The notes: a model not told the origin generated them from the letters alone. Shown: positions 16,459 through 52,154, counted from the stretch's first letter. The stretch: DNA of 64,000 bases from a virus (IMGVR_UViG_3300033077_000655); one strand, 5' to 3'. Translations and numbers: made by a program.

Positions 16459-18465
16459 ATGAAGAACAAAATTGCCTGGGTTCAACCCAATTTCCAACAA
16501 GGGCCTGCAGAGTTTAATGCATATTACTTGCCCTACTCAGCCGGTGTGGTATGGAGTTACAGTCTAGCTGATCCTTGGATTCGAGAACGGTTTGAAGCCA
16601 CTGATTGGGTATGGCGTAGAGACGCTGTAGAACCATTGGCACAAAAACTGGCACAAAACGACATTGTGACTTTTAGTACCTATGTGTGGAATCATCGTTA
16701 CAATTATGCTGTGGCCAAACGCATCAAGGAAATCAATCCTGCTGTATTGACTGTATTTGGTGGCCCTGAAGTTGCTATAACCGACCCTGACCTGTTTGTT
16801 AAAGAATCTTTTATGGATCTTGTGATTTGCTACGAAGGCGAAATAACTTTCAAACGTGTGCTACAGCACTTTGAAACTAAAGATTGGGAAAATGTACCTG
16901 GACTGTTGATCAACAGAAATGGCCGCGCAATACAAACACAGGATTCTAAACGTATTGAGTCATTAGAGGAAGTGCCCAGCCCGTACTTGGCAGGCATCTT
17001 TGACCAGATGATTGCCGATCATCCTGACATAACATGGCAAGGCACATTAGAAACCAATCGTGGTTGTCCGTTTGCTTGTACATTCTGTGACTGGGGTAGT
17101 TTGACCTACAACAAAGTTAAAAAGTTTGAACTTGAACGTGTGTTTGAAGAACTAGAATGGATGGCCAAACGCAACTTTGATTGGATCTCAATTACCGATG
17201 CTAACTTTGGTATGTTCCCCGAACGTGATGGTATGATTGCTGACAAGATAATTGAGTGCCAAGAAAAATACGGTTCTCCACGCACGTTTAGTGTGGCCTG
17301 GGCTAAAAATCAAAAGAAAGAAGTGATCGACATTGTAAAGAAACTGTTGGATGCTCGTGGCTTCAATCAAGGATTAACACTCAGTGTACAAAGCCTTGAC
17401 CAGGATGTGTTGGAAAATATTCGCCGCAAAAATATGGAAATGAACAAACTGGAGGAAGTGTTTGAATTATGTGATCAGCGTAATATTCCTGCATACACAG
17501 AACTCATACTTGGGTTGCCTGGTGAGACATTGACCACCTGGAAGAAAAACTTTTATGCATTGTACGAGTTAAATCAGCACACTGGCATTACTGTGTTTCA
17601 AGCGCAGTTGTTGGAAAATGCCGAAATGAACTTGTTGCAAAAGAAACTGTTCAAGATCACCAGCCAACCTGTTACAGATTACTTTGCTGGCAGTTACAGC
17701 GTGGAACACATTGAAGAAAGCATTGACGTTATCACCGGCACCAAAGACATGCCCACACCAGTGATGTTGGATGCACAGATCTTTTCCTGGTTCCAGACCA
17801 CATTCCACATAAATGGATTTGCCACATTGATTGCTAGATTTATCAACAAATACACAGGTATAAGTTACAATGATTACTATGAAGAGTTGTTTGCATATTT
17901 TATGACCAATGAGTGGTTGAAGAAAGAACAAAACGAAGCAAGACAATACTTTTCTAATTGGATGACCACTGGCCGAATCAACCATCCCAAGATTGGTGTG
18001 GAAATACACGGGTGGAACATCATACACAGAACCAGCATGAACATGCATCAAGAAGATCGGGTAGATGAGTTGTATGATTTCTTGGAAATATTTTTGCAAC
18101 GATACAATCTACCCGAAGATTTATCAACCAGTCTGATGAAACTACAAAGAAGTTACTACATCAAGTACAATGATAGAAATCAATATCCTATGAATCTTAA
18201 GTTAGATTATAATATTTGGGATTACTTGAGTTTTAATCAACCCTTGACAAAGACTTCTACAACATATCGATTGGACTTTCCAGAGGATAAAACTATGAGT
18301 CTTAATCGATTCTTAGAACTGTTTTATTTTGCAAGACGCAGAAACTTTGGTAAAGCCACTGTGGATCTTGTGGGAGTCGAAAATGCCAATGGAACACAAC
18401 GTGGTGCTGGGAGTGCCAAAGCACAAGGCAGTTTTTCTGTGAAGAAAAAATTATTAACCATATAA
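16459..18465 (+). CDS. B12-binding-domain radical SAM protein
   Basis: NRGCPFACTFCDW (Cx3Cx2C) follows an N-terminal Rossmann-like B12-binding-like domain. Confidence 0.7.
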   Translation: MKNKIAWVQPNFQQGPAEFNAYYLPYSAGVVWSYSLADPWIRERFEATDWVWRRDAVEPLAQKLAQNDIVTFSTYVWNHRYNYAVAKRIKEINPAVLTVFGGPEVAITDPDLFVKESFMDLVICYEGEITFKRVLQHFETKDWENVPGLLINRNGRAIQTQDSKRIESLEEVPSPYLAGIFDQMIADHPDITWQGTLETNRGCPFACTFCDWGSLTYNKVKKFELERVFEELEWMAKRNFDWISITDANFGMFPERDGMIADKIIECQEKYGSPRTFSVAWAKNQKKEVIDIVKKLLDARGFNQGLTLSVQSLDQDVLENIRRKNMEMNKLEEVFELCDQRNIPAYTELILGLPGETLTTWKKNFYALYELNQHTGITVFQAQLLENAEMNLLQKKLFKITSQPVTDYFAGSYSVEHIEESIDVITGTKDMPTPVMLDAQIFSWFQTTFHINGFATLIARFINKYTGISYNDYYEELFAYFMTNEWLKKEQNEARQYFSNWMTTGRINHPKIGVEIHGWNIIHRTSMNMHQEDRVDELYDFLEIFLQRYNLPEDLSTSLMKLQRSYYIKYNDRNQYPMNLKLDYNIWDYLSFNQPLTKTSTTYRLDFPEDKTMSLNRFLELFYFARRRNFGKATVDLVGVENANGTQRGAGSAKAQGSFSVKKKLLTI

Positions 18466-18470
18466 AATAA

Positions 18471-19316
18471 TTGTTAAAAATTATGGATTTTAATTTCGAG
18501 TATGATATCGGGGTGTTGTTGCCTACCCGAGGAAGAACCACCGCACTAATGACCAGTGTGAAATCACTGTATGATCATGCAGCTGATCCCAAGTCAATGA
18601 GATTACTATTGGCATTTGATCAAGACGATTCAGTTGGACTGGAATATTTTAACACTGATTTAAAACCATGGTTAGATTTGATCGGTGCAGAATATTTGGC
18701 TTTGAATTTTGTTCCGTTAGGCTATATACGCCTGAATGAATATGTGAATTTCTTGGCAAAACACGTTGATGCTCGATGGTATCTAGTCTGGAACGATGAT
18801 GCAGTAATGACCACTCCCCATTGGGATAACGTGATTCGACAATACAACGATCAATTTGCATTGCTGCGAGCAGAAACCAATCATGATCATCCATATGCTA
18901 TTTTTCCTATCCTGCCAAAAAAATGGTTAGAACTTACCGGACACATATCACCACATCAACTCAATGATGCGTGGACCAGCCAGGTTGCATGGATGTTGGA
19001 CGTTGTGATTACTATACCTGTGATGATCGAACACCAACGATTTGATCTCACCGGCAAGAATGGTGACGATGTGTTTATGAATCGTCCTATGCTAGAAGGT
19101 AATCCTACACATACTAGAGATTTTAATCATATTTCATGGCGTATGCGCCGACAGGATGATGCTGCAAAGATTGCACATTATTTGGAAAAATTAGGATATG
19201 ACCTGACACATTTTAAATTGGGTATAGAAAACAAAATTGACATCTGGCATAAGATGTTGAAATTAGACACCAAGGGGCTAATGAAATCATGGAGCAGCAC
19301 TGATCTTGAAAAATGA
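18471..19316 (+). CDS. GT-A-like glycosyltransferase candidate (paralog B)
   Basis: VLLPTRGR...AFDQDD; clear paralog of 15586..16416, including shared HNDHPY, IFPI and HQRFD blocks. Confidence 0.4.
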   Translation: MLKIMDFNFEYDIGVLLPTRGRTTALMTSVKSLYDHAADPKSMRLLLAFDQDDSVGLEYFNTDLKPWLDLIGAEYLALNFVPLGYIRLNEYVNFLAKHVDARWYLVWNDDAVMTTPHWDNVIRQYNDQFALLRAETNHDHPYAIFPILPKKWLELTGHISPHQLNDAWTSQVAWMLDVVITIPVMIEHQRFDLTGKNGDDVFMNRPMLEGNPTHTRDFNHISWRMRRQDDAAKIAHYLEKLGYDLTHFKLGIENKIDIWHKMLKLDTKGLMKSWSSTDLEK

Positions 19317-20085
19317 ACTTGTAGACCGAATTAAACAGTATTGGAATACTCAGCCTTGCAACGTCAAGCACAGTCTTAGTGTTCCGGGCACAGAACAGTA
19401 TTGGAATGAAGTTTCCAAACGTAGATTCTTTGTAGAACCCCATCAATTTGACTTTGCTAGCTTTAATCTTTGGCACGGTAAACGTGTTTTAGAAATAGGA
19501 TCCGGAATCGGAACCCATGCTGTGGAGTTTGCACGTCACGGTGCTGACTATGTGGGGATCGATCTTTCAGCAGAGTCGGTGGCCATGAGTCAACAACGAT
19601 TTGAACTGTTTGGATTAACTGGCAAATTCCATGTGATGGATGGCGCCGACTCTGCTGCGGTTGCTGGTCTAGGAAAATTTGATCTAGTATACAGTTGCGG
19701 GGTATTGCACCACTATCCGGACATGACCGCTTGTTTGAATAACATCCATGCTGCATTAGTACCCAACGGAGAGTTCCGTATGTTGGTATACGCAAAGAAC
19801 TCATGGAAGTACGCCATGATCCAAAAAGGTCTAGATCAATTTGAAGCACAAGCAGATTGCCCGTATGCCAAGGCCTATAGCAAAGAAGAAATTTATGATC
19901 TCTTAAAAGGACAATTTGAGGTACAAAGCATTAGACAAGATCATTGTTTCATGTATAATGTAGTTAAGTATCGCACTGGCGAGTACGAATTGGAGCCTTG
20001 GTTTGCTGCCATGCCCGAAGACATGCGAGCAGCAGTTAAAGAATATCTAGGTTGGCATTTGTTAATTAAAGCACAAAAAATATGA
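19306..20085 (+). CDS. class I SAM-dependent methyltransferase
   Basis: VLEIGSGIGTHAVEF motif I and DLVYSCGVLHH. Confidence 0.65.
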   Translation: MKNELVDRIKQYWNTQPCNVKHSLSVPGTEQYWNEVSKRRFFVEPHQFDFASFNLWHGKRVLEIGSGIGTHAVEFARHGADYVGIDLSAESVAMSQQRFELFGLTGKFHVMDGADSAAVAGLGKFDLVYSCGVLHHYPDMTACLNNIHAALVPNGEFRMLVYAKNSWKYAMIQKGLDQFEAQADCPYAKAYSKEEIYDLLKGQFEVQSIRQDHCFMYNVVKYRTGEYELEPWFAAMPEDMRAAVKEYLGWHLLIKAQKI

Positions 20086-20945
20086 GCAAACTAAAAGTAG
20101 CAGAATTGTTTTACTCAATTCAAGGGGAAGGTAGATATATGGGGGTACCCAGCGTCTTCTTGAGAACTTTTGGCTGCAATTTTTCTTGCAAGGGCTTCGG
20201 CATGCCACGTGGCGAACTCAGCAAGGAAGCTGATGAAGTAGCAGTAATGAATGCCATGCATCGATTTGAGAAATATGAAGAACTTCCACTTGTTAGCACA
20301 GGATGTGACAGCTATGCTAGTTGGCATCCTGACTTCAAGAATCTAAGTCCCATGCTGACCAGTGATGCTATCGTAGATCGCATTATGGATATTATTCCGT
20401 ACAAAGAATGGCGTGACGAGCATCTTGTGATCACAGGTGGCGAGCCATTGCTAGGCTGGCAACGTGCATATCCTAGTTTATTAGACAATCCCAAGATGGC
20501 AAGTCTTAAAGAAATTACGTTTGAAACCAATGGTACTCAAGAACTCAGCACTGAGTTTAGAAAGTATTTGTTAAATTGGACACTAGGTAACAAGGCACGT
20601 GGCCGAGAAGCATTGACATTTAGTGTGAGTGCTAAACTGCCTTGTTCAGGTGAGAAGTGGTCGGATGCTATTTGTCCTGAGATTGTGTGTCAATATCAAG
20701 ATGTTGGGCACACATACTTGAAACTGGTAATTTCTACCAATGAAGATTTTGCAGATGCTCAACGTGCAGTGGCAGAATATCGTGCAGCTGGATTCAAGGG
20801 TCATGTGTATTTGATGCCTGTTGGTGGAGTTGAAAGTGTATATGCGTTGAACAATAAGAATGTAGCTATTTTGGCCATGAATCATGGTTGGCGTTACAGT
20901 GATCGACTTCAAGTACCATTGTTCAAGAACGAATGGGGCACCTGA
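20082..20945 (+). CDS. queE: 7-carboxy-7-deazaguanine synthase (QueE)-like radical SAM
   Basis: N-terminus AELFYSIQGEGRYMGVPSVFLRTFGCNFSC resembles QueE. Confidence 0.65.
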   Translation: MSKLKVAELFYSIQGEGRYMGVPSVFLRTFGCNFSCKGFGMPRGELSKEADEVAVMNAMHRFEKYEELPLVSTGCDSYASWHPDFKNLSPMLTSDAIVDRIMDIIPYKEWRDEHLVITGGEPLLGWQRAYPSLLDNPKMASLKEITFETNGTQELSTEFRKYLLNWTLGNKARGREALTFSVSAKLPCSGEKWSDAICPEIVCQYQDVGHTYLKLVISTNEDFADAQRAVAEYRAAGFKGHVYLMPVGGVESVYALNNKNVAILAMNHGWRYSDRLQVPLFKNEWGT

Positions 20946-21162
20946 TGCCCATGGATAGTTTTGCACCCGAACCTCGATCGAAAGATTATGGATTGAATAG
21001 AACACAGAGATGGGATTTGAAACTTTGTTGGCTTCCAAATAAATGTTTTATCAGCGGAAAATCATTATGGGGCAAGCGGGCCTATCATGGTATTAGATGG
21101 ATACATGGCCCCGGAGAGCCAGTTGAGCAAACTTATTGGGTTGATAAACATGAGTTTTTGAT

Positions 21163-21645
21163 TTGGCAATTGAAACGATGACTAAAAATTCAGCAAACGG
21201 TGTCAGCAGTTTTGACAGTGAATCAACTGGTACCCTAGTGCATTTCCTCAACAGAAATGTAACACCTTATGCTACATCCACGCTGGGTCCTAAGTTTGAT
21301 CTGGTGCCTGTTGAAAAGCAGAAGGACATCATGATCAATGTTGCCAGAATGCATTCTCAACAAGAATACAATCGCATCATGGATCTAGTTCGAGTGTTAG
21401 AATCACAAGCACAAGATATCAAACGACGACTGGAAATAACAGATGCAGTACATGCTGCCGAGTATCAGTTTCAAACACATCATGGGCAGACTTATTGGTT
21501 GGTTTTTGATAAAGACAAAAAGAAAACCATCTTGGCAAGATCGGGCCCCAATGACTGGAGCAGTAGTGCTCCTGAGCATTATGAATATATTGCCCAAGTC
21601 AAGTGGCTGGGTGATTATACCTGGATAGAAGTAAAAGAGGATTAA
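21163..21645 (+). CDS. hypothetical protein
   Basis: ORF. Confidence 0.35.
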   Translation: MAIETMTKNSANGVSSFDSESTGTLVHFLNRNVTPYATSTLGPKFDLVPVEKQKDIMINVARMHSQQEYNRIMDLVRVLESQAQDIKRRLEITDAVHAAEYQFQTHHGQTYWLVFDKDKKKTILARSGPNDWSSSAPEHYEYIAQVKWLGDYTWIEVKED

Positions 21646-21646
21646 C

Positions 21647-22069
21647 ATGGCATTTTTTGATTGGTTTCGAAAGAACCCCACACCTGTAGGACAAAAGTTA
21701 CCCGAACCCAAAGTAGCACCACCTGTGCCACGATCCAAGACTCCCAAAGAAGAATCCAAAACAGCCAAGCAATTGGCCACCGAGAACAATGCACCGTATG
21801 TGAATATTCTCAGTATGGATGTGGATTTGGACAACTTGCATCAAGGTGCATTTGAATTAGACTGGAATGAGATCTTTGTAGCACGACTGGTCAAAGCTGG
21901 CTACATGATCAAGAAAGACGATACTGATTCTGAAATAGTGGATCGTTGGTTCCAAAATGTATGCCGCCATGTTGTGATGGAAACTTGGGAACAAGAAGAA
22001 GCCATCAGCAAGAGTGGTGTATGGGTACGTAGCACAGATATTGGTGGCGGCCGTACTGAAGTATCGTGA
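21647..22069 (+). CDS. hypothetical protein
   Basis: ORF. Confidence 0.35.
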   Translation: MAFFDWFRKNPTPVGQKLPEPKVAPPVPRSKTPKEESKTAKQLATENNAPYVNILSMDVDLDNLHQGAFELDWNEIFVARLVKAGYMIKKDDTDSEIVDRWFQNVCRHVVMETWEQEEAISKSGVWVRSTDIGGGRTEVS

Positions 22070-22797
22070 GGCTGTACGTCAACGGCGATAGCCATACAGC
22101 AGGTGCAGAAGCAGTATCACCGGCAGCATTTGCCGAGGATGATGGCCATCCTGAACTGGGGCGCCGACCACATCCTGCTAATCTAGCAGTAAGCTGGGGA
22201 CAACAACTGGCTGACAAATTAGGCATTGAATTGGTATGTGATGCTGAATCTGCTGCATCTAACTACAGAATTCTTCGTACCACACGAAACTGGATGAATA
22301 GTTTACAGCCCTGGGAATCGGCGGTGGCAATCATACAGTGGAGCACTTGGGAGCGCGAAGAGTGGTTGCACAATGGTGAATACTTGCAAGTAGGCAGTTC
22401 GGGTCTGGATTTGGTTCCTGACGAACTAGCGGATCAGTACAAGCGATTTGTAGTTGGTGTAGATTGGACTTGGTGCCAACAATACTGGCACGATGAGATT
22501 TGGCAACTGCATCAGGACCTGGATGCAGCAAAGATCCCGCATGTGTTCTTTAACGGCAACAATTCATTTGATCGAATCCGTAATGGTGCCTGGCACCAAG
22601 TTGATTGGAACAACGCATACATCGCACCATATTCAGAATACACTTACGATCATATACTACGTGAAGCCAATTTTGTCACGGTGAATCCTGAGTCCTGGCA
22701 TTTCGGTAAAGATGCCCATTGCTTTTGGGCTGAATTTGTGTTACAATACTGTATAGAAAACAATATATTGGATCCCCATGCGATATCTCTTGATTGA
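22066..22797 (+). CDS. SGNH/GDSL-like hydrolase candidate
   Basis: N-terminus LYVNGDSHTAG resembles SGNH block I. Paralogous to the interrupted gene at 45596-46245. Confidence 0.45.
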   Translation: MRLYVNGDSHTAGAEAVSPAAFAEDDGHPELGRRPHPANLAVSWGQQLADKLGIELVCDAESAASNYRILRTTRNWMNSLQPWESAVAIIQWSTWEREEWLHNGEYLQVGSSGLDLVPDELADQYKRFVVGVDWTWCQQYWHDEIWQLHQDLDAAKIPHVFFNGNNSFDRIRNGAWHQVDWNNAYIAPYSEYTYDHILREANFVTVNPESWHFGKDAHCFWAEFVLQYCIENNILDPHAISLD

Positions 22798-23800
22798 TAC
22801 AGCTAACACTTTTTTCCGTGCTCGCCACTCTGTTTTCCGTGCTGCTGATGCTTGGGAAAAAGTAGGATATGCTTTACACATTGTGATGAGTAGTGTGAAC
22901 AAAGTACACAAACAGTTTCAAGCAGATCACGTGATTTTCGCACTAGAAGGGCGATCATGGCGCAAGGACTTTTATGGTCCCTACAAGAAAAACCGCGCTG
23001 TGGCTCGTGCTGCATTATCGGATACAGAACAAGAAGAGGATAAATTGTTTTGGGAAACCTATGATAGCCTCACTAAATACTTGGCTGAAGGTACTAACTG
23101 TAGCGTTATCCGACATCCTGAAGCCGAAGCAGACGACGTGATTGCTCGCTGGATAGCCTTGCATCCGCAGGACGAGCACTACGTGATTTCATCAGACACA
23201 GATTTTGTGCAATTACTAGCACCCAATGTTAGCCAATATAATGGCATTACCGATGAACTTCACACGGTAACAGGCATATTTGATGCCAAGGGCAAGCGTG
23301 TGAAAGACAAAAAGACCAAGACAGACAAAGTGATTCCTGATCCAGAATGGCTGTTGTTTGAAAAATGCATGCGTGGTGATACGTCTGATAACGTATTTTC
23401 GGCGTATCCTGGTGTGCGAACCAAAGGCACCAAAAACAAAGTTGGCTTGCAAGAAGCATTTGAAGACCGCAATAACAAAGGCTTCAATTGGAACAATCTC
23501 ATGTTACAACGTTGGTCTGACCACAATGGTGACGAACATCGTGTGAAAGACGACTACGAACGCAATCGTGTACTGATTGATCTCACTGCACAACCCAAAG
23601 AGATCAAAGACAAAGTGGATGGTGCGATACGTGAACAGATCAGCCACAAAGACATTGGCCAAGTTGGCGTGCGATTCATGAAGTTCTGCGGCAAGTACGA
23701 ACTCAACAAAATATCTGAGTCAGCGGAGCAGTATGCTCGCTGGCTTAACGAAACCTATAAAGGAACACTAGATGAGCATCATAGCCAAGCCCATAGTTAA
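22778..23800 (+). CDS. 5'-3' exonuclease / flap endonuclease (T4 RNase H-like)
   Basis: N-terminus MRYLLIDTANTFFRA (PIN-like); acidic clusters throughout. Confidence 0.6.
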   Translation: MRYLLIDTANTFFRARHSVFRAADAWEKVGYALHIVMSSVNKVHKQFQADHVIFALEGRSWRKDFYGPYKKNRAVARAALSDTEQEEDKLFWETYDSLTKYLAEGTNCSVIRHPEAEADDVIARWIALHPQDEHYVISSDTDFVQLLAPNVSQYNGITDELHTVTGIFDAKGKRVKDKKTKTDKVIPDPEWLLFEKCMRGDTSDNVFSAYPGVRTKGTKNKVGLQEAFEDRNNKGFNWNNLMLQRWSDHNGDEHRVKDDYERNRVLIDLTAQPKEIKDKVDGAIREQISHKDIGQVGVRFMKFCGKYELNKISESAEQYARWLNETYKGTLDEHHSQAHS

Positions 23801-44777: not shown

Positions 44778-44850
44778 GCCGCGGTAGCTCATCAGGTAGA
44801 GCAGCAGACTGAAAATCTGTGTGTGGCTGGTTCGAGTCCAGCTCGTGGTA
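44778..44850 (+). tRNA. tRNA-Phe (GAA)
   Basis: D arm GCTC-ATCAGGTA-GAGC; anticodon arm GCAGA-CTGAAAA-TCTGT; T arm GCTGG-TTCGAGT-CCAGC. Confidence 0.7.
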
Positions 44851-45406: not shown

Positions 45407-45433
45407 CCACACAAGAGATATATAAAGTATTAT

Positions 45434-45506
45434 TCCGACGAAGCAAACACGGTGTGGGCAGAGGACTGTTAATCCTTGAAGGCTGGTTCGATTCCAGCGG
45501 TCGGAG
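45434..45506 (+). tRNA. tRNA-Asn (GTT)-like with a weak D arm and a 7:66 mismatch
   Basis: Anticodon arm GAGGA-CTGTTAA-TCCTT; T arm GCTGG-TTCGATT-CCAGC. Confidence 0.45.
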
Positions 45507-45516
45507 CCAAATTCAA

Positions 45517-45587
45517 GCCCTATTAGTATAATGGCATTATCACGGTTTTGTAATCCGTTGACGGGAGTTCGATTCTCTCATGGGGCA
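45517..45587 (+). tRNA. tRNA-Thr (TGT)
   Basis: Acceptor GCCCTAT/ATGGGGC; anticodon loop TTTGTAA; T arm GGGAG-TTCGATT-CTCTC. Confidence 0.65.
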
Positions 45588-45595
45588 CCATACAT

Positions 45596-46245
45596 ATGAA
45601 AAAAGCATTGATATTAGGATGTAGTCATTCAGTAGGAGAGGAGATGAGTAAAGAACCAGGATTGGTTTTTAATGATTTGGCTCAGGCCACAGACTACGAG
45701 ATAACCCACTGTTATCCTGCACAAATTGCCCGAAAGCTGGGATATACCGCGTCAATCGAGGTATATCCGGAGGCAGTAACGATGCCATGTTTAGATTGTT
45801 TTTAAATGGGACATTAACACCCAACGACATAGTAATTGCTTGTTGGTCCGGAGTAGATCGAAGTGAAGTCTATGATAAAACATGGTTGCAATTATGCCCG
45901 GGTGCTCCAATACCAAAAGAAATTACTTCCGACTACTTTAAACAATGGTTGTTGTATTCAGCTAATACCGAAGTAGGTATGTTAAATAAAACAAAAAACA
46001 TACTAGCACTTAATGCATTGGCTCACGCACAAGGCATACGAGTCATAAACATAGATAGTTTTTGGCCTGTTAATTTTTGGCCTATAGTAAATTACGTCTG
46101 GCCCAACACAGTAAAATGGGCTGTGGACATTGATTTTATGTCGTGGTGCCAACGACACAACTTTCCTCATACAGAAAGAGTTCATTTTTTTAAACCAGCA
46201 CATGATTCGTTTGCCGAACATGTGCTAGAGAATATCGCGGAGTAG
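45596..46245 (+). pseudogene. SGNH-like hydrolase gene split by a frameshift in a T5 run (ORFs 45596-45805 and 45787-46245)
   Basis: ILGCSHSVGEE N-terminus parallels NGDSHTAGAE of the 22066 ORF. The two frames abut at gtttttaaa (about 45798-45803). Confidence 0.4.
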
Positions 46246-46311
46246 GGGAGTCTAGCCGTCCCCGCCAGTCTCATAAGCTGGAGATCGCAGGTGCGAATCC
46301 TGCCTCCGCAA
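46236..46311 (+). tRNA. tRNA-Met (CAT) with a C1·A72 mismatch, initiator-like
   Basis: CGCGGAG...CTCCGCA-A acceptor with unpaired C1/A72; D stem GGGG/CCCC; anticodon loop CTCATAA; T arm GCAGG-TGCGAAT-CCTGC; CCA encoded. Confidence 0.65.
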
Positions 46312-46387
46312 CCAAGTCAAGTCCATGCGTCACTCACTTTGACTGAGTGTTTGTTCCGTTATTGGAGAGTCTCTGGACTGTTTTTTT

Positions 46388-46461
46388 ACCGCCTTGGCTC
46401 AATTGGATAGAGCACTGGATTACGAATCCGGGGGTTGGGAGTTCGAATCTCTCAGGTGGTA
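46388..46461 (+). tRNA. tRNA-Arg (ACG)
   Basis: D arm GCTC-AATTGGATA-GAGC; anticodon arm CTGGA-TTACGAA-TCCGG; T arm GGGAG-TTCGAAT-CTCTC. Preceded by a T7 run. Confidence 0.75.
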
Positions 46462-46474
46462 CCAAAAATAACGG

Positions 46475-46503
46475 TTGACAACTACCGCAAAAGGTTGTAT
46501 AAT
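46475..46503 (+). promoter_or_regulatory. perfect-consensus sigma70 promoter TTGACA-N17-TATAAT
   Basis: TTGACA at 46475-46480 and TATAAT at 46498-46503. Confidence 0.6.
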
Positions 46504-46617
46504 TAACACATAAACAAAAAGGAACTATATGAAGCCAACAGCTAAACTATAGTGTCAATCATAGATCCCGTATATGGTCTTGGGTTGGCACATTAAAGAC
46601 AATTTGATATGCACAAC

Positions 46618-46689
46618 CCATGCTAAACTTTAGTGGTGAAGTAACCGGCTCTTAACCGGAGGAACAGAGTTCGAGTCTCTGAGCATGGA
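46618..46689 (+). tRNA. tRNA-Lys (CTT)
   Basis: Acceptor CCATGCT/AGCATGG; anticodon loop CTCTTAA; T arm CAGAG-TTCGAGT-CTCTG. Confidence 0.65.
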
Positions 46690-46696
46690 CCATATA

Positions 46697-46768
46697 CGGG
46701 GTATAATTCAATGGTTAGAATAGCCGGCTTTTAACCGGTCTATCACGGTTCGAGTCCGTGTGCCCCGA
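46697..46768 (+). tRNA. tRNA-Lys (TTT)
   Basis: Acceptor CGGGGTA/TGCCCCG; anticodon arm GCCGG-CTTTTAA-CCGGT; T arm CACGG-TTCGAGT-CCGTG. Confidence 0.75.
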
Positions 46769-46927
46769 CCATATAAAAACATACTGTGAGGCGCTAGTTG
46801 CATGGCGAATTTAAACAGAATGCAACCCGTCATGTAATAAGTGTACATAAAGATGATGAGCAGTGTGTTTTTATATGGTAAAACAGGAGTAATTACCCTG
46901 CACCATAATCGGGAGTCATGACCCGAT

Positions 46928-47027
46928 GAACTCGTAGTGATGGAATGGTCAAACATAGGCCTCTTATCGGGCCGGTGGAGTTAAATGCCCACTTGCAGGT
47001 TTCGAAATCCTGCCTACAATGAGTTCG
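46928..47027 (+). ncRNA. 100-nt tRNA-like RNA of unclear identity
   Basis: GAACTCG...TGAGTTC-G-CCA acceptor-like pairing; T-arm-like GCAGG-TTTCGAAAT-CCTGC; internal hairpins; no canonical anticodon arm found. Confidence 0.35.
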
Positions 47028-47110
47028 CCATATAAAAACACATTTTTAACTAGGCATGCCCCTGCAAGGGTTTAACAGCAGTTTTGAGTGTGTTTCTATA
47101 TGGTTTTATG

Positions 47111-47181
47111 TTGGCCATGGTGTAATGGAAGCACCCGACTCTGTGAAAGTCGTAGCATGGGATCGTTACCCATTGGTCAAC
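47111..47181 (+). tRNA. tRNA-His (GTG)
   Basis: G-1 at 47110 and discriminator C; anticodon arm CGACT-CTGTGAA-AGTCG; T arm ATGGG-ATCGTTA-CCCAT (A at position 54). Confidence 0.7.
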
Positions 47182-47364
47182 CCAAATTAAAGATTGTTTA
47201 TAAAACGCAAAGCTAGATTCACGTTGGTAAAATAACGCAACTGAGCTTCGGCCGTAAACACATCATACACGATGATGCAGCAAACACCGATATCGCTTAG
47301 GCTTAGATGAAAATTCAAGCCCTGTGGTGTTAGGTTTTGATAGCGTCTCACACAAGTATTTATT

Positions 47365-47436
47365 GGTCATGTGGCGTAGATGGATGCGCACCGCCCTCAT
47401 AAGGCGAGGAGGTTGGATCGATACCAACCATGACCA
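47365..47436 (+). tRNA. tRNA-Met/Ile2 (CAT)
   Basis: Perfect acceptor GGTCATG/CATGACC; anticodon loop CTCATAA; T arm GTTGG-ATCGATA-CCAAC. Confidence 0.7.
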
Positions 47437-47440
47437 CCAT

Positions 47441-47513
47441 GCCCTGGTGACGGAATGGCATACGTACTGGTCTTAGAAACCAGGTTCTGTGGGTTCGAGT
47501 CCCACCTAGGGCA
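47441..47513 (+). tRNA. tRNA with anticodon TAG (Leu by anticodon) but class-I length
   Basis: Acceptor GCCCTGG/CTAGGGC; perfect anticodon arm CTGGT-CTTAGAA-ACCAG; T arm GTGGG-TTCGAGT-CCCAC. Confidence 0.6.
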
Positions 47514-47526
47514 CCATGATTAGTTT

Positions 47527-47598
47527 GGGGGATTGATATAGTTGGAAACATACTGTCATGGCATGGCAGCATCAGCAGTTCGAATCTGCTATCCTCCA
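47527..47598 (+). tRNA. tRNA-Ala (GGC)
   Basis: G3·U70 in the acceptor GGGGGAT/ATCCTCC; anticodon arm CTGTC-ATGGCAT-GGCAG; T arm AGCAG-TTCGAAT-CTGCT. Confidence 0.7.
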
Positions 47599-47668
47599 CC
47601 AACGCAGACTCTTGGTTCAATGGTAGAACGGTATTACTATAAATAGTATTCTACCATTGGAGAATAAG

Positions 47669-48055
47669 ATGCCAAAACCAAAAATCCATCCTCGCATATA
47701 TAATTGTATTCATTGTGGAACAGAGAATGAATGGACCACAAAAAAGAATAATAAGTTTTGTAACCATTCTTGTCAGCAAAATTATAGATGGATAAATGAA
47801 ACAAAACCATTGATAGAATCTGGGAAAAAAAATACAAACAATTTTAGAGCCTTACTAAAATATGTCAAAGAACGAGATGGCTATAAATGTAAAATTTGTG
47901 ATTTAACCAATTGGCAAGGAAACCCTATATCATTGGATTTAGATCACATAGATGGAAATAATAAAAACAATTTTCCAAGTAACCTACGATTGTTATGTCC
48001 TAACTGTCATAGGCAAACTCCTACTTGGGGTAATAAAACTCGTTCTGGTCTATAG
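47669..48055 (+). CDS. HNH homing endonuclease
   Basis: LDLDHIDGNNKNN...LRLLCPNCH. Start set at the ATG at 47669, which has a GGAG RBS. Confidence 0.7.
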   Translation: MPKPKIHPRIYNCIHCGTENEWTTKKNNKFCNHSCQQNYRWINETKPLIESGKKNTNNFRALLKYVKERDGYKCKICDLTNWQGNPISLDLDHIDGNNKNNFPSNLRLLCPNCHRQTPTWGNKTRSGL

Positions 48056-48117
48056 ATTAGCGGTAAATCGTTACGTTGACATCGTAAAGATCACTGGTTC
48101 GATTCCAGTTAGACCAA
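48046..48117 (+). tRNA. tRNA-Val (GAC)
   Basis: Perfect acceptor TGGTCTA/TAGACCA; anticodon arm TTACG-TTGACAT-CGTAA; T arm ACTGG-TTCGATT-CCAGT. Overlaps the HNH stop. Confidence 0.75.
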
Positions 48118-48121
48118 CCAG

Positions 48122-48150
48122 TTGACAAGTATCACAAGTGATGCTATAAT
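48122..48150 (+). promoter_or_regulatory. consensus promoter TTGACA-N17-TATAAT
   Basis: TTGACA at 48122-48127 and TATAAT at 48145-48150; the spacer contains the palindrome ATCACAAGTGAT. Confidence 0.55.
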
Positions 48151-48358
48151 TGCAGCATGTTAAGAAATTAACATACGCTCATTAAAAATTTATTGATATA
48201 AAGACTGGAAACAGTCCAAGTCTTTATATCCACATGCACAAATGCCTTGCGCAGGCAGATGTAGCGGATTACAGCTCTGGTCAATCCGGGGTAGGCAGGT
48301 TCAATTCCTGCAAGTGTATGTGGATATAGAGATTTTGATAATTCAAAATAAAAAATTT

Positions 48359-48431
48359 GCCTGGTTGCGTAGAGAGGTTATACGTCTCCTTTACACGGAG
48401 AGCGATGACAGTTCGAGTCTGTCACCAGGTA
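48359..48431 (+). tRNA. tRNA-Val (TAC)
   Basis: Acceptor GCCTGGT/ACCAGGT; anticodon arm TCTCC-TTTACAC-GGAGA; T arm GACAG-TTCGAGT-CTGTC. Confidence 0.75.
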
Positions 48432-48438
48432 CCAATAT

Positions 48439-48513
48439 GCAACGGTGGCAGAGCGGCCCAATGCAAGGGATTGCAAATCCCTAAAACCGGGGGTTCAAAT
48501 CCCTCCCGTTGCT
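48439..48513 (+). tRNA. tRNA-Cys (GCA)
   Basis: Perfect acceptor GCAACGG/CCGTTGC; anticodon arm AGGGA-TTGCAAA-TCCCT; T loop TTCAAAT. Confidence 0.8.
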
Positions 48514-48523
48514 CCACATAATC

Positions 48524-48594
48524 CTCGGTATAGTGAAATGGTATCACCCGTGCTTTGGGAGCATGAAGCGGAAGTTCGATTCTTCCTACCGAGA
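48524..48594 (+). tRNA. tRNA-Pro (TGG) with G37
   Basis: Perfect acceptor CTCGGTA/TACCGAG; anticodon arm CGTGC-TTTGGGA-GCATG; T arm GGAAG-TTCGATT-CTTCC. Confidence 0.7.
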
Positions 48595-48601
48595 CCAACA
48601 A

Positions 48602-48688
48602 GCGACTGTAGCCGAATTGGTCTAGGCATCAGATTTAAAATCTGACGATTCCGAAAGGGTCTTGTGGGTTCGAGTCCCACCAGTCGCA
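48602..48688 (+). tRNA. tRNA-Leu (TAA), class II
   Basis: Perfect acceptor GCGACTG/CAGTCGC; anticodon arm TCAGA-TTTAAAA-TCTGA; long variable arm; T arm GTGGG-TTCGAGT-CCCAC. Confidence 0.85.
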
Positions 48689-48692
48689 CCAG

Positions 48693-48767
48693 CTGGCGTT
48701 AGTATAATGGATAATACAGGGGATTTCTACTCCCTAAATGGCAGTTCGATTCCGGCCAGTTGCACCA
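48693..48767 (+). pseudogene. degenerate copy of tRNA-Arg (TCT): 5' two-thirds intact, 3' acceptor does not pair
   Basis: Identical to the 50320 tRNA through the anticodon arm (GGGGA-TTTCTAC-TCCCT), then diverges (AATGGCAGTTCGATTCCGGCCAGTTGCACCA). Confidence 0.5.
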
Positions 48768-48783
48768 CTCATAAATAAATTAC

Positions 48784-50310
48784 ATGTACAATGCTATACT
48801 TTTTACAGATCGAACCGACAACATATTTGGATCGGTCACTATTGGGGCATTTAAATGTGCTCATGTTTTAAGAAAACACGGATACTCGTGTTTGGTAGTC
48901 AATCATTATTCAGAATATACACATGAGGATCTGGTTGAACTTGTTGATTTAGCAGTGTCAGATCAAACTATCCTGATTGGGTTTAGTTCTACATATTTAA
49001 AAAATACTCAAATACAAAAACAAGTAGGAGAACCCACACCACCATATCCTGACATTGTTGATGACTCGGTATTCCCGCAAGGCAAAGATTTTGAAAATAA
49101 ATTTTTTGAATATTTGCATAAAACAAATAGCAAACTAAAAATCATAGTAGGTGGTACAAGGGTAACACAACAATATTCTAACAGGAATATTGACTATGCA
49201 TTTATTGGATATAGTGAAATATCTATAGTTAATCTAGCCAATCATCTGACCACCGGCGAACGCTTAGATAAAAGCAGTAAAAATATATACGGTGTGGTCA
49301 TCGTTGATGATCGATTTGCTCCTGCATATAATTTTAATAGTGAAGATATGAGTTGGGAAGCCACAGATATAGTGAATCATCACAGTCTTCCTATAGAAAT
49401 AGGTCGTGGATGTATTTTTAAATGCAAGTTTTGTGCCTTTCCGATGAATGGAAAACAAAATTTAGATTTTGTTAAAACTGCTGATATACTGGAAGCTGAG
49501 TTAAAAAACAACTACGATAGGTATGGTGTTCGACATTATCACATTGTGGATGATACCTTCAATGACCATATTGAAAAATTAGAATCTATACGTCGTGTGG
49601 TTGATCGTTTGAATTTTCAACCGGTATTTTGGGGGTATCACAGATTAGATCTACTGTGTACTAGACCAGAAACAGTAAAAATATTGCACGATATTGGTGT
49701 TAGATCAATGTATTTTGGCATTGAGACTTTGAATGAAAAAGCAGGAAAAATAATTGGTAAAGGATACAACAAATCACGTCAGATTGACATGATTCAAACC
49801 ATTCGCAATCAATATTCTGACATCTCAATGCACGGAAGTTTTATTCTAGGATTGCCCGAGGAGAGTATTGACAGCGTGTGGGAAACTCATAATAGTTTAA
49901 TAAGTCAACAGATTCCATTGCATAGTTGGATGTCAAATGGATTGCACATGTATAACAACGATAAATCTACATACGTCAGTGAGTTTGAAAAAAACTTTAC
50001 CAAATATGGGTATGTTGATATTGGCACTGATAATGAATCTAATTCAAGAAATTGGAAGAACAATTTTACTAACAGTGAAGAAGTCAGAGTATTGGCTGCA
50101 AAATTTACCAACGAATCTCGACGGTTACCAAATTTTATGCTGCCCGGGCATGATGCATTGGCTTTGTCAACATATGGCGTTGATTTTGATATATCACGAT
50201 TTACCCCATATCATCAATTTGATTTCCATGCTGTAGAGCACACTGTTAAACCAAATTTTGATAAAGAATATAAAAAACAATTGTTGAATCTTATTCAACA
50301 TTCTAAATAA
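48784..50310 (+). CDS. B12-binding-domain radical SAM protein (paralog 1)
   Basis: GRGCIFKCKFCAF (Cx3Cx2C); N-terminal Rossmann-like domain; paralog of 50508..52154. Confidence 0.7.
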   Translation: MYNAILFTDRTDNIFGSVTIGAFKCAHVLRKHGYSCLVVNHYSEYTHEDLVELVDLAVSDQTILIGFSSTYLKNTQIQKQVGEPTPPYPDIVDDSVFPQGKDFENKFFEYLHKTNSKLKIIVGGTRVTQQYSNRNIDYAFIGYSEISIVNLANHLTTGERLDKSSKNIYGVVIVDDRFAPAYNFNSEDMSWEATDIVNHHSLPIEIGRGCIFKCKFCAFPMNGKQNLDFVKTADILEAELKNNYDRYGVRHYHIVDDTFNDHIEKLESIRRVVDRLNFQPVFWGYHRLDLLCTRPETVKILHDIGVRSMYFGIETLNEKAGKIIGKGYNKSRQIDMIQTIRNQYSDISMHGSFILGLPEESIDSVWETHNSLISQQIPLHSWMSNGLHMYNNDKSTYVSEFEKNFTKYGYVDIGTDNESNSRNWKNNFTNSEEVRVLAAKFTNESRRLPNFMLPGHDALALSTYGVDFDISRFTPYHQFDFHAVEHTVKPNFDKEYKKQLLNLIQHSK

Positions 50311-50319
50311 CCCAAACAT

Positions 50320-50391
50320 CTGGCGTTAGTATAATGGATAATACAGGGGATTTCTACTCCCTAGATAGCAGTTCGATTCTGTTACGCCGGA
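50320..50391 (+). tRNA. tRNA-Arg (TCT)
   Basis: Acceptor CTGGCGT/ACGCCGG; D arm GTAT-AATGGAT-AATAC; anticodon arm GGGGA-TTTCTAC-TCCCT; T arm AGCAG-TTCGATT-CTGTT. Confidence 0.65.
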
Positions 50392-50401
50392 CCAGCCAAA
50401 T

Positions 50402-50490
50402 GCCAGCGAGACTTGGAAGTCAGAGAGGTCTTATACGCCTTTTAGCCCCAGATTAGGGTTCTTGAGAGAGTTCGATCCTCTCCGCTGGTA
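50402..50490 (+). tRNA. class-II-length tRNA of uncertain identity (possible anticodon TAT)
   Basis: Acceptor GCCAGCG/CGCTGGT; T arm GAGAG-TTCGATC-CTCTC; variable-arm hairpin AGCCCcagattaGGGTT; best anticodon arm GAGGT-CTTATAC-GCCTT (two G·U pairs). Confidence 0.45.
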
Positions 50491-50507
50491 CCACACATAA
50501 GTAATGA

Positions 50508-52154
50508 ATGTTTAATAATAAAAAACCTAATGTTATTTTAATTACAGATTCTACTGATATAATTTCTTTAAACATTCTACTTGGGCCATTTAAAGTAGCA
50601 CATGTTCTTAAAGAGCATGGAATAGAAGTTGCAATGATACATCATGCATCAGCATTGTCATTTAAAGAAATAACTACTATTCTCAAAGAGATAATATCTG
50701 ATCAAACTTTGTTGGTGGGTATAAACAATTTCTATTATTCTTCCATTGAACTTAATAAAGATAATGGCAGTGATGGCATGACATTAAAAGAAATTGACCC
50801 AGGTAGTTTTTTACCTCATGGAAAAAGCAAAAATATTGAGTTAAAAACACTGATTAAATCATTGAATCCCAAAACCAAAATAGTGCTTGGCGGTGTGACT
50901 GCATTAGATACCAAGTACAACAAAGATTTTGATTATCTTGTGTTAGGATACGCCGAAACTGCAATATTGGATCTGGTGGATCATCTTAGGTCATCGTCTC
51001 CTATAGAAAAAAGTTATAAAAGTATCTATGGGCCAATAGTGCTGACAGACAAGGTAGCGTCTAGATATGATTTTTCATCATCCCATATGCGGTATGATCC
51101 AGACTGGTCAATACTGCCTGGATCAACATTTCATCTAGAATTAGGTCGTGGATGCATTTTTAAATGTGCATTTTGCGCTTATCCTTTCAATGGAAAAAAG
51201 AAAACTGATTATATTAGATCAAAAGAATCTATTCAGGCTGAGATGATAGACAATTACAACAGATTTGGTGTCACACGTTATTTGATGGGTGACGATACGT
51301 TTAACGACAACGTTGATAAATGCCGAATGATTTATGAAATATCCCAAGAACTTCCATTTAAATTAGAGTACTGGGCGTATTTGAGATTAGACCTGCTGAC
51401 GGCACATCCTGAAACAATAGATTATTTGTTTGACAGCGGCTTAAAAGCGGCGTTTTTTGGTATTGAAACTCTGAACCCCAAGACTGCATCTATAATAGGC
51501 AAAGGTGGCAATCGAGATAAAATGTTTAAAACTATAGCTGATATTAAATCTAAGTGGGGTGATTTAGTTTCGTTAGCCGCTGGGTTTATTTATGGATTAC
51601 CCGAAGAAGATTTAGATAGCCTACAACGCACAACTGATTTTTTGATCAGTGACCAAAACAAACTAGATCAGTGGCTAGTTGAAGCTTTAAACATACGCCC
51701 TACCGTTGATTATGATAATAGCTTTATCAGCGATATAGAAAAAAATTATGAAAAATATGGTTATAGTAAAATAGACAACCACACTCGTCCAGGTGGGTCC
51801 AATATAGGCACTGATCGCCGACGACATGCTATAGTCTGGAAGAATAAACACACAGACTATTACTCTGTTTTAAACATTACCGAAGCACTGAATGCTAGAA
51901 TAAAACCACACTTGAAAATTCCCGGCGATGCGGCTCTCCTGTTGAGTGGGCTAGGCATAGATTTAGACCAACTATTAAACAAACAACATGACCAAGTGCC
52001 GTGGAATAAACTAGATCAACTACATTTAAAAAAAGTTTTTGAGTATAAAAAACTCTTAGCTAAGAATTTAAATTTTGATATTAATCTCATTGACATGAAA
52101 ATTTTGCATCACAAAACGTACGGTAATTATCTCAAAGCAATGTTTGAAAAATAA
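50508..52154 (+). CDS. B12-binding-domain radical SAM protein (paralog 2)
   Basis: GRGCIFKCAFCAY; domain order as in 48784..50310. Confidence 0.7.
   Translation: MFNNKKPNVILITDSTDIISLNILLGPFKVAHVLKEHGIEVAMIHHASALSFKEITTILKEIISDQTLLVGINNFYYSSIELNKDNGSDGMTLKEIDPGSFLPHGKSKNIELKTLIKSLNPKTKIVLGGVTALDTKYNKDFDYLVLGYAETAILDLVDHLRSSSPIEKSYKSIYGPIVLTDKVASRYDFSSSHMRYDPDWSILPGSTFHLELGRGCIFKCAFCAYPFNGKKKTDYIRSKESIQAEMIDNYNRFGVTRYLMGDDTFNDNVDKCRMIYEISQELPFKLEYWAYLRLDLLTAHPETIDYLFDSGLKAAFFGIETLNPKTASIIGKGGNRDKMFKTIADIKSKWGDLVSLAAGFIYGLPEEDLDSLQRTTDFLISDQNKLDQWLVEALNIRPTVDYDNSFISDIEKNYEKYGYSKIDNHTRPGGSNIGTDRRRHAIVWKNKHTDYYSVLNITEALNARIKPHLKIPGDAALLLSGLGIDLDQLLNKQHDQVPWNKLDQLHLKKVFEYKKLLAKNLNFDINLIDMKILHHKTYGNYLKAMFEK

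Follow-up and report, generated by a model that had tools for sequence, protein, structure and literature searches.

A predicted cobalamin-dependent radical SAM methylase in a deazapurine and sugar gene block of an uncultivated jumbo phage

Results

Five radical SAM genes form two separate sets

The viral DNA stretch IMGVR_UViG_3300033077_000655, 64,000 nucleotides long and referred to here as the window, contains five genes for radical S-adenosylmethionine (SAM) proteins. The one at 16459–18465, which we call R1, lies inside a block of deazapurine and sugar genes and is the main subject of this report. The others are QueE (20082–20945), R3 (41985–42743), R4 (48784–50310) and R5 (50508–52154); all five open reading frames (ORFs) were confirmed and all are on the + strand. 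A preliminary description of the window had proposed five radical SAM proteins, and this is borne out by Pfam and NCBIfam profiles and by the positions of the cluster motifs. R1, R3, R4 and R5 match the Pfam Radical_SAM domain (PF04055) above threshold with E values of 1.7e-11, 7e-8, 2e-19 and 4e-16, respectively, and QueE matches it under the gathering threshold (E 5e-5). The CX3CX2C motif occurs in exactly four window genes, R1, R3, R4 and R5, where ∼0.04 would be expected from cysteine frequency, and was found in no further window gene. The NCBIfam matches of R1, R4 and R5 are all far under the family cut-offs. None of these three resolves into a housekeeping family such as the anaerobic ribonucleotide reductase (RNR) activase, an outcome that the preliminary description had allowed for. 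R3 and QueE score 24.9 and 16.2 bits against an NrdG cut-off of 131, and no NrdD (class III RNR) was present among the ∼60 window genes scanned. The window carries two separate sets of radical SAM genes, one being the R1/QueE block and the other R3, R4 and R5.

R1 carries the signature residues of TokK/CysS-type methylases

Compared by sequence with proteins in the PDB, R1 matches TokK with an E value of 2.4e-79 (residues 22–482) and CysS with 3.7e-49, and its alignment to the cobalamin domain of TokK starts at residue 22. The B12-binding domain (PF02310) is recognized in R1 at 34 bits, above the gathering threshold of 32.1 bits. Two tryptophans, Trp76 under the cobalt and Trp215 in the active site, are common to TokK, ThnK and CysS and are not shared by the other cobalamin-binding radical SAM methylases compared (bioRxiv 10.1101/2021.07.10.451909). 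Their equivalents in R1 are W77 (in STYVWNH) and W212 (in FCDWGS), both of which are invariant in R1 and 30 relatives at 32–54% identity, together with the three cluster cysteines, G101-G102, and E126 and E128 of the YEGE motif. The KedN5 family model NF033712 of NCBIfam gives R1 260.6 bits against a cut-off of 700 and aligns over profile positions 6–388 of 624 only. On these sequence comparisons we confidently place R1 among TokK/CysS-type homologs, and we predict it to be a cobalamin-dependent radical SAM C-methyltransferase of this type that belongs to no named equivalog family.

R1 belongs to a family of 1,544 representative clusters at E ≤ 1e-30, with homologs in at least 594 IMG/VR stretches. 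The 50,697 GenBank phage records yielded just two weak matches (26% and 25% identity), both on human faecal contigs, and no deazapurine genes lie within 10 kb of the match on the larger of these, MT835514. In bacterial genomes the sole close relative sits on a 1-kb contig of a metagenome-assembled genome that is probably mis-binned. R1-type genes are common in viral metagenomes and have no cultured-phage carriers. Some relatives hold two R1 paralogs within one cluster, as at the related loci L216 (32% and 66% identity) and L225 (57% and 44%).

R1 is integrated in a compact block and keeps its place between QueD and QueE

The block containing R1 sits between the gene for a family-B DNA polymerase (PolB) and those for a 5′-3′ exonuclease and MazG, and its genes (11060–20945) are tightly packed, with intergenic gaps of −20 to +80 nt from 11060 to 23800. 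Ahead of it lies the gene for o150 (10377–10829), a small protein conserved alongside deazaguanine clusters of the DpdA type; it matches phrog_17812 and has homologs in Xanthomonas phage X1 and at loci L245, L247 and L248. A putative GT1-like glycosyltransferase of the GT-B type follows (11060–12229; Pfam Glycos_transf_1 E 1.4e-5, just under the gathering threshold), and then an intact NAD-dependent sugar-nucleotide epimerase/dehydratase of 317 amino acids (12231–13184), 66% identical to a gene of locus L001 annotated Epimerase/GDP_Man_Dehyd. A short DegT/DnrJ/EryC1-type aminotransferase-like protein of 198 amino acids (13165–13761) matches only the N-terminal part of the PF01041 profile (E 3e-13). 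Next come FolE, a GTP cyclohydrolase I (13763–14551; Pfam E 5e-38), a HIT-family nucleotide hydrolase/transferase (14628–15032; Pfam HIT E 4e-8), a QueD/PTPS-family 6-carboxytetrahydropterin synthase (15113–15586; Pfam PTPS E 2e-15, NCBIfam QueD E 1e-8, the latter under cut-off) and, immediately before R1, the putative GT-A-type glycosyltransferase GT-like a (15586–16416; phrog_14945 'glycosyltransferase' E 7e-14). R1 is followed by GT-like b (18471–19316), assigned by a PHROG match and by its paralogy to GT-like a (40% identity), and by a class I SAM-dependent methyltransferase (19306–20085; Pfam Methyltransf_12/25/23/11 ∼1e-16, phrog_22502 E 7e-55) that overlaps the start of QueE. All of these genes are on the + strand. 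Small unknown proteins and a DUF6071 protein (20933–22797) and the 5′-3′ exonuclease (22778–23800) complete the run, and a MazG-like protein (23932–24603) lies just past it. A pseudogene between 12229 and 13165 was considered and rejected, as the epimerase ORF is intact. The placement of R1 by a deazapurine/sugar module, as first described, proves to be physical integration in that cluster.

We scored the neighbours of R1 in 80 IMG/VR loci with R1 genes 71–98% identical to that of the window, counting a neighbour wherever the contig was long enough. A GT-like gene lies immediately 5′ of R1 in 65/65 loci, QueD within 2 kb upstream in 56/56, FolE upstream in 35/35, HIT in 33/35, and QueE within 2.7 kb downstream in 74/74. 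The order QueD-R1-QueE is also kept in subgroups whose R1 is 65–75% and 53–57% identical. R1 stays between QueD and QueE while other neighbours vary, among them DUF2452, a CTP_transf-like gene, the SGNH-like gene 'x', the methyltransferase and the second GT-like gene. GT-like b was found only in the window-like and 54%-identity R1 subgroups; most members of the latter also have the class I methyltransferase, which just 8 of the first 80 loci carry. We considered whether the methyltransferase at 19306 makes a methyl ester of 7-carboxy-7-deazaguanine (CDG) that R1 extends, as CysS and KedN5 do; this is unsupported, the enzyme being a generic class I type with the narrow distribution just given.

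Gene 'x' encodes ∼235 amino acids with SGNH/GDSL-like motifs (FGCSFT, GGGN and DPHPSPEEH) and lies between R1 and QueE in most relatives (for example L001 11995–12696 and L017 13624–14361). It was rejected as a QueC candidate, given these motifs and the lack of a Pfam hit. A 158-amino-acid CTP_transf_like gene, known from precomputed Pfam annotation, follows o140 in L001–L004, and most other relatives show a size-matched gap there. The window has neither gene and holds the second GT-like gene and the methyltransferase in their stead.

The block resembles DpdA-type deazaguanine clusters

Five NCBIfam QueE models match the protein at 20082–20945 at 1e-10 to 1e-14, all under cut-off, and its only PDB sequence matches are QueEs. 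The preliminary identification as QueE (7-carboxy-7-deazaguanine synthase) therefore stands, with the correction that the cluster motif is not CX3CX2C but C32-x3-C36-x38-C75, which is invariant in relatives. Across this QueE and its relatives (L001 12693–13538, L017 14358–15209, L100 9001–9861) the motif reads C-x3-C-x36-38-C, with an insert of ∼36 residues between the second and third cysteines that is invariant in the relatives. Among cultured phages, 135 records match this phage-type QueE, 134 of them over at least 80% of its length, and these are annotated as QueE. Carriers of the subtype include Campylobacter, Cellulophaga and Vibrio phages and haloviruses, from genera with measured 7-deazaguanines in their DNA (PMC10516641).

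Three further genes tie the block to clusters that contain the transglycosylase DpdA. Next to the DNA polymerase gene of Xanthomonas phage X1, a homolog of GT1-like adjoins the annotated transglycosylase (DpdA) as well as QueE and an o150-like gene; window o150 is 48% identical to the X1 gene between DpdA and QueE, and the other X1 genes are 24–35% identical to their window counterparts. Cyanophage BUCT-ZZ01 (our locus L100) has QueE-XGPRT-QueD-FolE together with a DpdA homolog (35% identity to X1 DpdA), an o150-like gene and a GT1-like gene, to which window GT1-like is 64.5% identical. The uncultivated loci L245–249 show QueE-XGPRT-FolE-DpdA, followed in L245, L247 and L248 by a gap and then o150-like and GT1-like genes, with QueD further along in L247 and L248. 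Window FolE is 68–72% identical to that of L245–249, and in L245, L247 and L248 the identities are 49–51% for o150 and 53–55% for GT1-like. Since FolE, o150 and GT1-like are common to both, we take the window block to descend from DpdA-type DNA-modification clusters, to which it has added R1 along with genes for the epimerase and for the DegT-like, HIT and GT-A-like proteins. To our knowledge the GT1-like and o150-like genes of the X1 (L244) and BUCT-ZZ01 clusters have not been discussed as pathway parts. The DpdA homolog, GT1-like and o150-like genes of BUCT-ZZ01 (9001–15935) are annotated 'hypothetical', as are the GT1-like and o150-like genes of X1 (6653–12757).

The window comes from an uncultivated jumbo phage

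Most ORFs of the window are on the + strand (81 of the 106 kept by a greedy ORF filter), and it holds 36 tRNA genes and one transfer-messenger RNA (tmRNA). The nearest cultured relatives of its PolB are those of Sinorhizobium phage Phosso (48.6% identity) and Agrobacterium phage Atu_ph07 (46.4%), which are jumbo phages of 470–490 kb. No nucleotide-level relative was found among the 50,697 GenBank phage records, and metagenomic and IMG/VR contigs, the longest of 476 kb, carry hundreds of close relatives. The source is a T4-like jumbo phage belonging to a large group that is uncultivated and apparently lives in freshwater. Its tmRNA (62007–62360) belongs to the betaproteobacterial kind of permuted, two-piece tmRNAs (RF01850 at 125 bits, RF04321 at 121 bits; tag peptide ANDSVYSLAA), which as the sole hint to the host suggests a betaproteobacterial lineage.

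R4 and R5 have a class-B-like architecture

R4 and its paralog R5 are 35% identical to each other and unrelated to R1 beyond the radical SAM core. Their best NCBIfam match, the PhpK family, covers only that core and is far under cut-off, and no PDB relative of R4 was found by sequence. We therefore turn to structure: an AlphaFold2 model of R4 built from 54 sequences reached a predicted local distance difference test score (pLDDT) of 93.2, and its best PDB fold matches were TsrM (9e-18), CysS, MgmA, OxsB and TokK. AprD4 also matched (2.5e-12), and MiaB, RimO and MtaB did so more weakly. Aligned profile to profile with hhalign, the R4 and R1 families match at 93% probability, with KIIVGG and GYSE of R4 falling on VFGGPE and YEGE of R1; G123, G124, G142 and E145 are invariant in the R4 family. 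That family has 1,413 relatives in the protein collection, and among UniProt-derived viral structures its named members are 'uncultured Caudovirales phage' entries only. R4 and R5 form a new class-B-like subfamily carried on phage-type contigs.

Cobalamin binding by R4 and R5 is likely, judging from the fold and profile comparisons. The preliminary description had given B12-binding-like N-termini to R1, R4 and R5; this holds for R1 by its PF02310 score, while R4 (18.5 bits) and R5 (22.4 bits) stay under the threshold and have their class B architecture backed by fold and profile evidence. Some R4-family members do carry PF02310 in precomputed annotation. It is conceivable, though we think it improbable, that both N-terminal domains are degenerate Rossmann folds without cobalamin and that the proteins carry out a non-methylating radical reaction. 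AprD4 has the same domain and leaves the cofactor unused, and its presence among the top fold matches favours such a reading, as do the low PF02310 scores and the lack of a DxHxxG motif in R4 and R5. Against it, the five best fold matches of R4 are cobalamin-binding enzymes, and the invariant GG and G..E motifs line up with their counterparts in the TokK-like family. Absence of DxHxxG is moreover general among class B radical SAM enzymes, since their cobalamin is bound base-off and His-off (bioRxiv 10.1101/2021.07.10.451909). We rejected an identity of R4 and R5 as methylthiotransferases (MiaB/RimO), since they have no invariant N-terminal cysteine, the C-terminal domain of the R4 model is mostly helical with no TRAM-like barrel, and the fold matches are weaker.

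R3 resembles twitch-domain sugar dehydrogenases

The gene at 41985 was first described as encoding a protein with a single Cx3Cx2C cluster, which is not borne out. The R3 family has six invariant cysteines, C163, C179 and C214 being the three beyond the motif, and two that are nearly so (C233 and C236), and the protein has a twitch-domain radical SAM fold. By sequence R3 matches PDB entry 7wzv (E 6e-8). Its AlphaFold2 model (pLDDT 94) matches SpeY in Foldseek at 7.5e-14, with a TM-score of 0.70, and BtrN at 4.9e-5. SpeY and BtrN are twitch radical SAM dehydrogenases of aminoglycoside and aminocyclitol biosynthesis. From the model we regard R3 as resembling these sugar and cyclitol dehydrogenases. 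Anaerobic RNR activase, MoaA, viperin and HxsC were rejected as identities, since only the N-terminal 100 residues match and the scores are far under cut-offs, whereas SpeY matches over the full length; the fold matches to viperin and MoaA likewise cover only the N-terminal half of R3.

The tRNA array is a probable hot-spot for insertions

R4 and R5 lie within an array of 35 tRNA genes called by ARAGORN (42745–55444, + strand), which also holds homing-endonuclease-type ORFs. The stop codon of R3 is 1 nt before the first tRNA of the array, and R4 and R5 are within about 20 nt of their nearest tRNA genes. Strong promoter-like sites precede genes of the R3/R4/R5 region, two of them, at 46475 and 48122, with 12/12 consensus positions, and no + strand terminator-like site was found in the gaps to the flanking tRNAs. 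In the preliminary description this adjacency was taken as a clue to function. It was overstated: among 80 loci of the R4 family, homologs (29–96% identity) lie inside tRNA arrays in just 17, and 55 have no tRNA within 6 kb. Locus L016 has an R3 homolog (24% identity, E 2e-23) beside an R4 homolog inside an array. A 47%-identical R3 homolog is located beside RNR genes at a locus whose gene map gives no sign of a tRNA array, although this locus was not scanned for tRNAs. PD-(D/E)XK_5 and HNH endonuclease-type ORFs stand between tRNA genes of the window (43659–44060 and 47657–48055), and the arrays of relatives also hold genes for ClpP, ClpS, hydroxylases, ACP and KS. In the L119-type lineage an R4 homolog occupies another slot, where together with a radical SAM/SPASM gene and an 89-amino-acid ORF it lies between the exonuclease and the c3/o98/o120 genes; the backbone at this insertion is that which follows the R1 block in the window. 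Since most R4-family loci lack tRNAs within 6 kb, the array carries endonuclease ORFs and a different backbone slot is also used, we interpret the array as a hot-spot for insertions and the closeness of R3, R4 and R5 to tRNA genes as mainly positional.

Several other features of this region deserve mention. An unusually long tRNA-Ile(UAU) of 92–95 nt, with its anticodon at position 31, lies between R4 and R5 (50402–50493) and is kept in L009 (7619–7710) and L016 (2191–2285). An 87-nt 'tRNA-Cys(ACA)' at 48234–48320 is a doubtful call. The 89-amino-acid ORF (L119 5732–6001) is translationally coupled to the R4 homolog in its tRNA-free lineage, and its window homolog (62394–62633) is found just past the tmRNA. 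Upstream of the array is an RNA-repair set consisting of an Rnl2-like ligase with a PHA02142 OB domain (27324–28337), a PNK-like kinase (30671–31207), a phosphoesterase (34555–35124) and a T4 Rnl1-like ligase (40366–41256). The same region includes genes unusual for a phage, encoding a TctA tricarboxylate transporter subunit (35978–37282), an SPFH/Band 7 protein (31611–32405), a BPL_N domain protein (33618–34289) and a protein with an HD_4 (RelA/SpoT-type hydrolase) domain (39483–39986). A second sugar module (54410–61368) comprises a glucosyltransferase on the − strand, an NDP-hexose C-methyltransferase type protein (Methyltransf_14), GT34, an epimerase/dehydratase, two Methyltransf_24 proteins, a split transketolase (59876 and 60487) and DUF6165. 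Finally, some relatives have islands rich in radical SAM genes (L241 1425–16007, L172, L174 and L176), with three to six CX3CX2C proteins per 13–18 kb. The radical SAM-like types in these islands are SPASM, Zn-ribbon, R1 and R4, and they occur with an epimerase and multi-copy unknown paralogs.

Discussion

A deazaguanine-sugar hypermodification is our best explanation

The explanation that we consider best, tentatively and with somewhat less than an even chance of being correct, is that the R1 block makes a deazaguanine-sugar hypermodification and that R3, R4 and R5 are accessory tailoring enzymes. FolE, QueD and QueE would make CDG, and R1 would methylate a side chain or sugar joined to the CDG-derived base by the glycosyltransferase-like enzymes next to it. 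The reaction scheme of R1 is drawn by homology to the TokK/ThnK/CysS-type enzymes: one SAM would methylate the Co(I) of bound cobalamin, a second would be cleaved at the [4Fe-4S] cluster to give a 5′-deoxyadenosyl radical, this radical would take a hydrogen from an unactivated sp3 carbon, and methylcobalamin would give a methyl radical to that carbon, possibly repeatedly. This would yield a bulky and new kind of 7-deazaguanine hypermodification, carried most probably by the phage DNA and acting there as an anti-restriction device. R3, R4 and R5, which sit in the hyperplastic tRNA array, would be tailoring enzymes. As their substrate a tRNA is less likely than a sugar, another small molecule or a peptide, and given the second sugar module and the affinity of R3 to sugar dehydrogenases, sugar tailoring is the most economical guess for all three. 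In its most specific form, namely that these phages replace or decorate guanine of their DNA with a 7-deazaguanine bearing a sugar and one or more C-methyl groups placed by a radical SAM enzyme that depends on B12, and do so by a DpdA-free route, we regard the proposal as unlikely.

Several observations weigh against a deazaguanine role for R1. Neither GT-like a nor GT-like b has a Pfam or PDB sequence match, the glycosyltransferase assignment coming from one PHROG match, and the loci behind the linkage counts belong to related phages, so that these counts are not independent events. No DpdA or TGT was detected in the window or in ∼240 related loci within 6–10 kb of R1 or R4, by tblastn, hmmsearch --max and jackhmmer with the X1 and BUCT-ZZ01 DpdA proteins, a search that covered part of a roughly 350-kb genome. 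No QueC-type match was found among the annotated window genes and no phosphoribosyltransferase in the window. Taken together, the lack of DpdA/TGT, QueC and a phosphoribosyltransferase in these searches leaves the route of the base into DNA unexplained. In addition, R1 homologs 53–55% identical to R1 occur at loci free of deazapurine genes (L231 and L239–242), so that R1-type enzymes need no deazapurine partner.

Further searches bear on the missing transglycosylase. No window gene has a TGT match in Pfam or PHROG, and a search with the cyanophage DpdA found five loci, none on an R1-carrying contig. The DUF6071 protein and proteins of 514 and 388 amino acids were each considered as a hidden DpdA and rejected for want of Pfam or PHROG support; the DUF6071 and 514-amino-acid proteins also have no PDB relative, and the former has no phage match either. 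In the relative L051, R1 and QueE are separated by an XGPRT-like gene.

Alternative roles

Mainly because of the deazapurine-free loci, we treat a role confined to sugars or glycans as a serious competing reading, albeit one that we hold to be improbable. R1 and its GT-like neighbours would then tailor a virion glycan or a host surface polysaccharide, FolE, QueD and QueE would be mere neighbours in a hyperplastic region, and R3–R5 and the module at 55–61 kb would likewise serve glycan chemistry. In the three such loci mapped in detail (L239, L241 and L242) an NAD-dependent epimerase is encoded in the same long operon as the R1 homolog; in L239 and L241 the flanks of R1 hold a paralog family present in multiple copies, L241 has three more CX3CX2C proteins, and no PDB relatives were found for the neighbours of R1 at these loci. 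The many sugar genes of the window (epimerases, DegT-like, GT1-like, GT34, the NDP-hexose C-methyltransferase type, split transketolase and glucosyltransferase) and the likeness of R3 to sugar and cyclitol dehydrogenases point the same way, and cobalamin-dependent radical SAM sugar C-methylases exist, GenK and GenD1 being examples. What argues for the deazaguanine reading instead is that in all loci of three subgroups (53–98% identity) R1 stands inside the interval from QueD to QueE instead of next to it, and that GT1-like and o150 themselves accompany DpdA in bona fide deazaguanine clusters.

We consider it distinctly doubtful that R4 and R5, with a SPASM or twitch partner, mature a peptide or protein in the manner of RiPPs (peptides synthesized by ribosomes and modified post-translationally). 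The model for this is the proteusins, in which cobalamin radical SAM C-methyltransferases act alongside a radical SAM epimerase. The radical SAM/SPASM gene and the coupled 89-amino-acid ORF that precede the R4 homolog in the L119-type lineage would suit such a system, as would a second CX3CX2C protein within 6 kb in 25/80 R4 loci and the ClpP, ClpS and Asp/Arg hydroxylase genes adjoining R4 in relatives. However, no candidate precursor adjoins R4 or R5 in the window, where the homolog of the 89-amino-acid ORF is far off; that protein has no obvious leader-core features in its sequence, and the nearest structures to R3 act on sugars, not peptides.

Least probable of all is that R3, R4 and R5 modify phage tRNAs or other RNA (for example by C-methylation of ribose or base), with R1 and QueE serving a queuosine-like tRNA modification: the position of these genes within 15 nt of flanking tRNA genes with no + strand terminator-like site between, the minority of R4 homologs in arrays, the L016 pair and the nearby RNA-repair genes are outweighed by the R4-family loci without tRNAs, the R3 homolog adjoining RNR genes, the endonuclease and other unrelated ORFs in the arrays, the helical C-terminus of R4 without a TRAM-like barrel and the lack of a TGT in the window or the ∼240 loci. 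As RlmX, a radical SAM enzyme dependent on cobalamin, methylates ribose C5′ in E. coli 23S rRNA (PMC13602947), an RNA role nevertheless retains a precedent.

Significance

The modification of phage DNA with 7-deazaguanines is itself well described (PMC6884629, PMC10516641), and to that extent the preliminary claim of a chemistry undescribed for phages went too far; the claim is supported for the enzyme type, as we found no papers describing cobalamin-type radical SAM enzymes in phages. As a whole the preliminary interpretation is partly supported, and its chemistry we infer. Eight derivatives are known from viral DNA, dPreQ0, dADG, dG+, dPreQ1, mdPreQ1, fdPreQ1, dDG and dCDG, none of which requires a cobalamin radical SAM enzyme or a glycosyltransferase (PMC10516641); neither radical methylation nor glycosylation enters into the making of any of the eight. 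R1 adds a new member, in a new setting, to a known kind of enzyme, and should the pathway proposed for the block prove right, phage deazaguanine modification would gain a new variant. Hypermodifications of phage DNA are the main counter-measure to restriction and CRISPR and a source of new enzymology. R1-type genes, here set between QueD and QueE, are present in at least 594 viral metagenome stretches and in no cultured phage, and point to a widespread unstudied pathway.

Were the proposal true in its most specific form, R1 would catalyze the first cobalamin-dependent step known in viral nucleic-acid modification and its product would found a ninth and far bulkier class of deazaguanines, and phage replication would depend on the cobalamin status of the host. 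If the pathway acts on DNA, it would extend natural DNA chemistry and would be predicted to confer resistance to defences that recognize the known deazaguanines; it would also tie the infection success of the abundant jumbo phages of this group to cobalamin, a scarce and traded vitamin in aquatic communities. R4 and R5 define a new phage-borne branch of class-B-like radical SAM proteins, and R3 is a phage homolog of aminoglycoside-type sugar dehydrogenases. A more general lesson is that adjacency to a tRNA array in jumbo phages carries no functional signal on its own.

Comparison with known systems

R3 is like SpeY and BtrN in its whole-length fold, its N-terminal CX3CX2C motif and C-terminal cysteines consistent with an auxiliary cluster; it differs in being only 20–23% identical, in its length of 252 amino acids compared with ∼300, and in being phage-borne and abutting a tRNA array. 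R4 and R5 have a two-domain architecture like that of class B radical SAM enzymes such as TsrM, OxsB, MgmA/QCMT, PhpK and RlmX and find their best structural matches among them; from these R4 is set apart by its distinct helical C-terminal domain and by a family found so far on phage-type contigs.

TokK and ThnK alkylate C6 of carbapenems and CysS extends the alkoxy group of cystobactamids, all three as sequential C-methyltransferases. R1 has in common with them a cobalamin Rossmann domain, a radical SAM core and a large C-terminal domain, along with CX3CX2C and the two signature tryptophans. In contrast, Arg280 of TokK, which binds the carboxylate of the substrate, aligns with a serine in R1, so that the substrate of R1 would be a different one. 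The substrates of TokK, ThnK and CysS are pantetheine-linked, whereas the R1 block has no carrier protein gene, and their genes belong to antibiotic clusters while R1 belongs to a phage deazapurine/sugar cluster.

The block as a whole shares with phage deazaguanine systems the phage-type QueE, FolE, QueD, o150-like and GT1-like genes and a location in the replication module. It departs from DpdA systems in having no local DpdA, QueC or XGPRT and in adding R1 and the GT-A-like, HIT, epimerase, DegT-like and methyltransferase genes.

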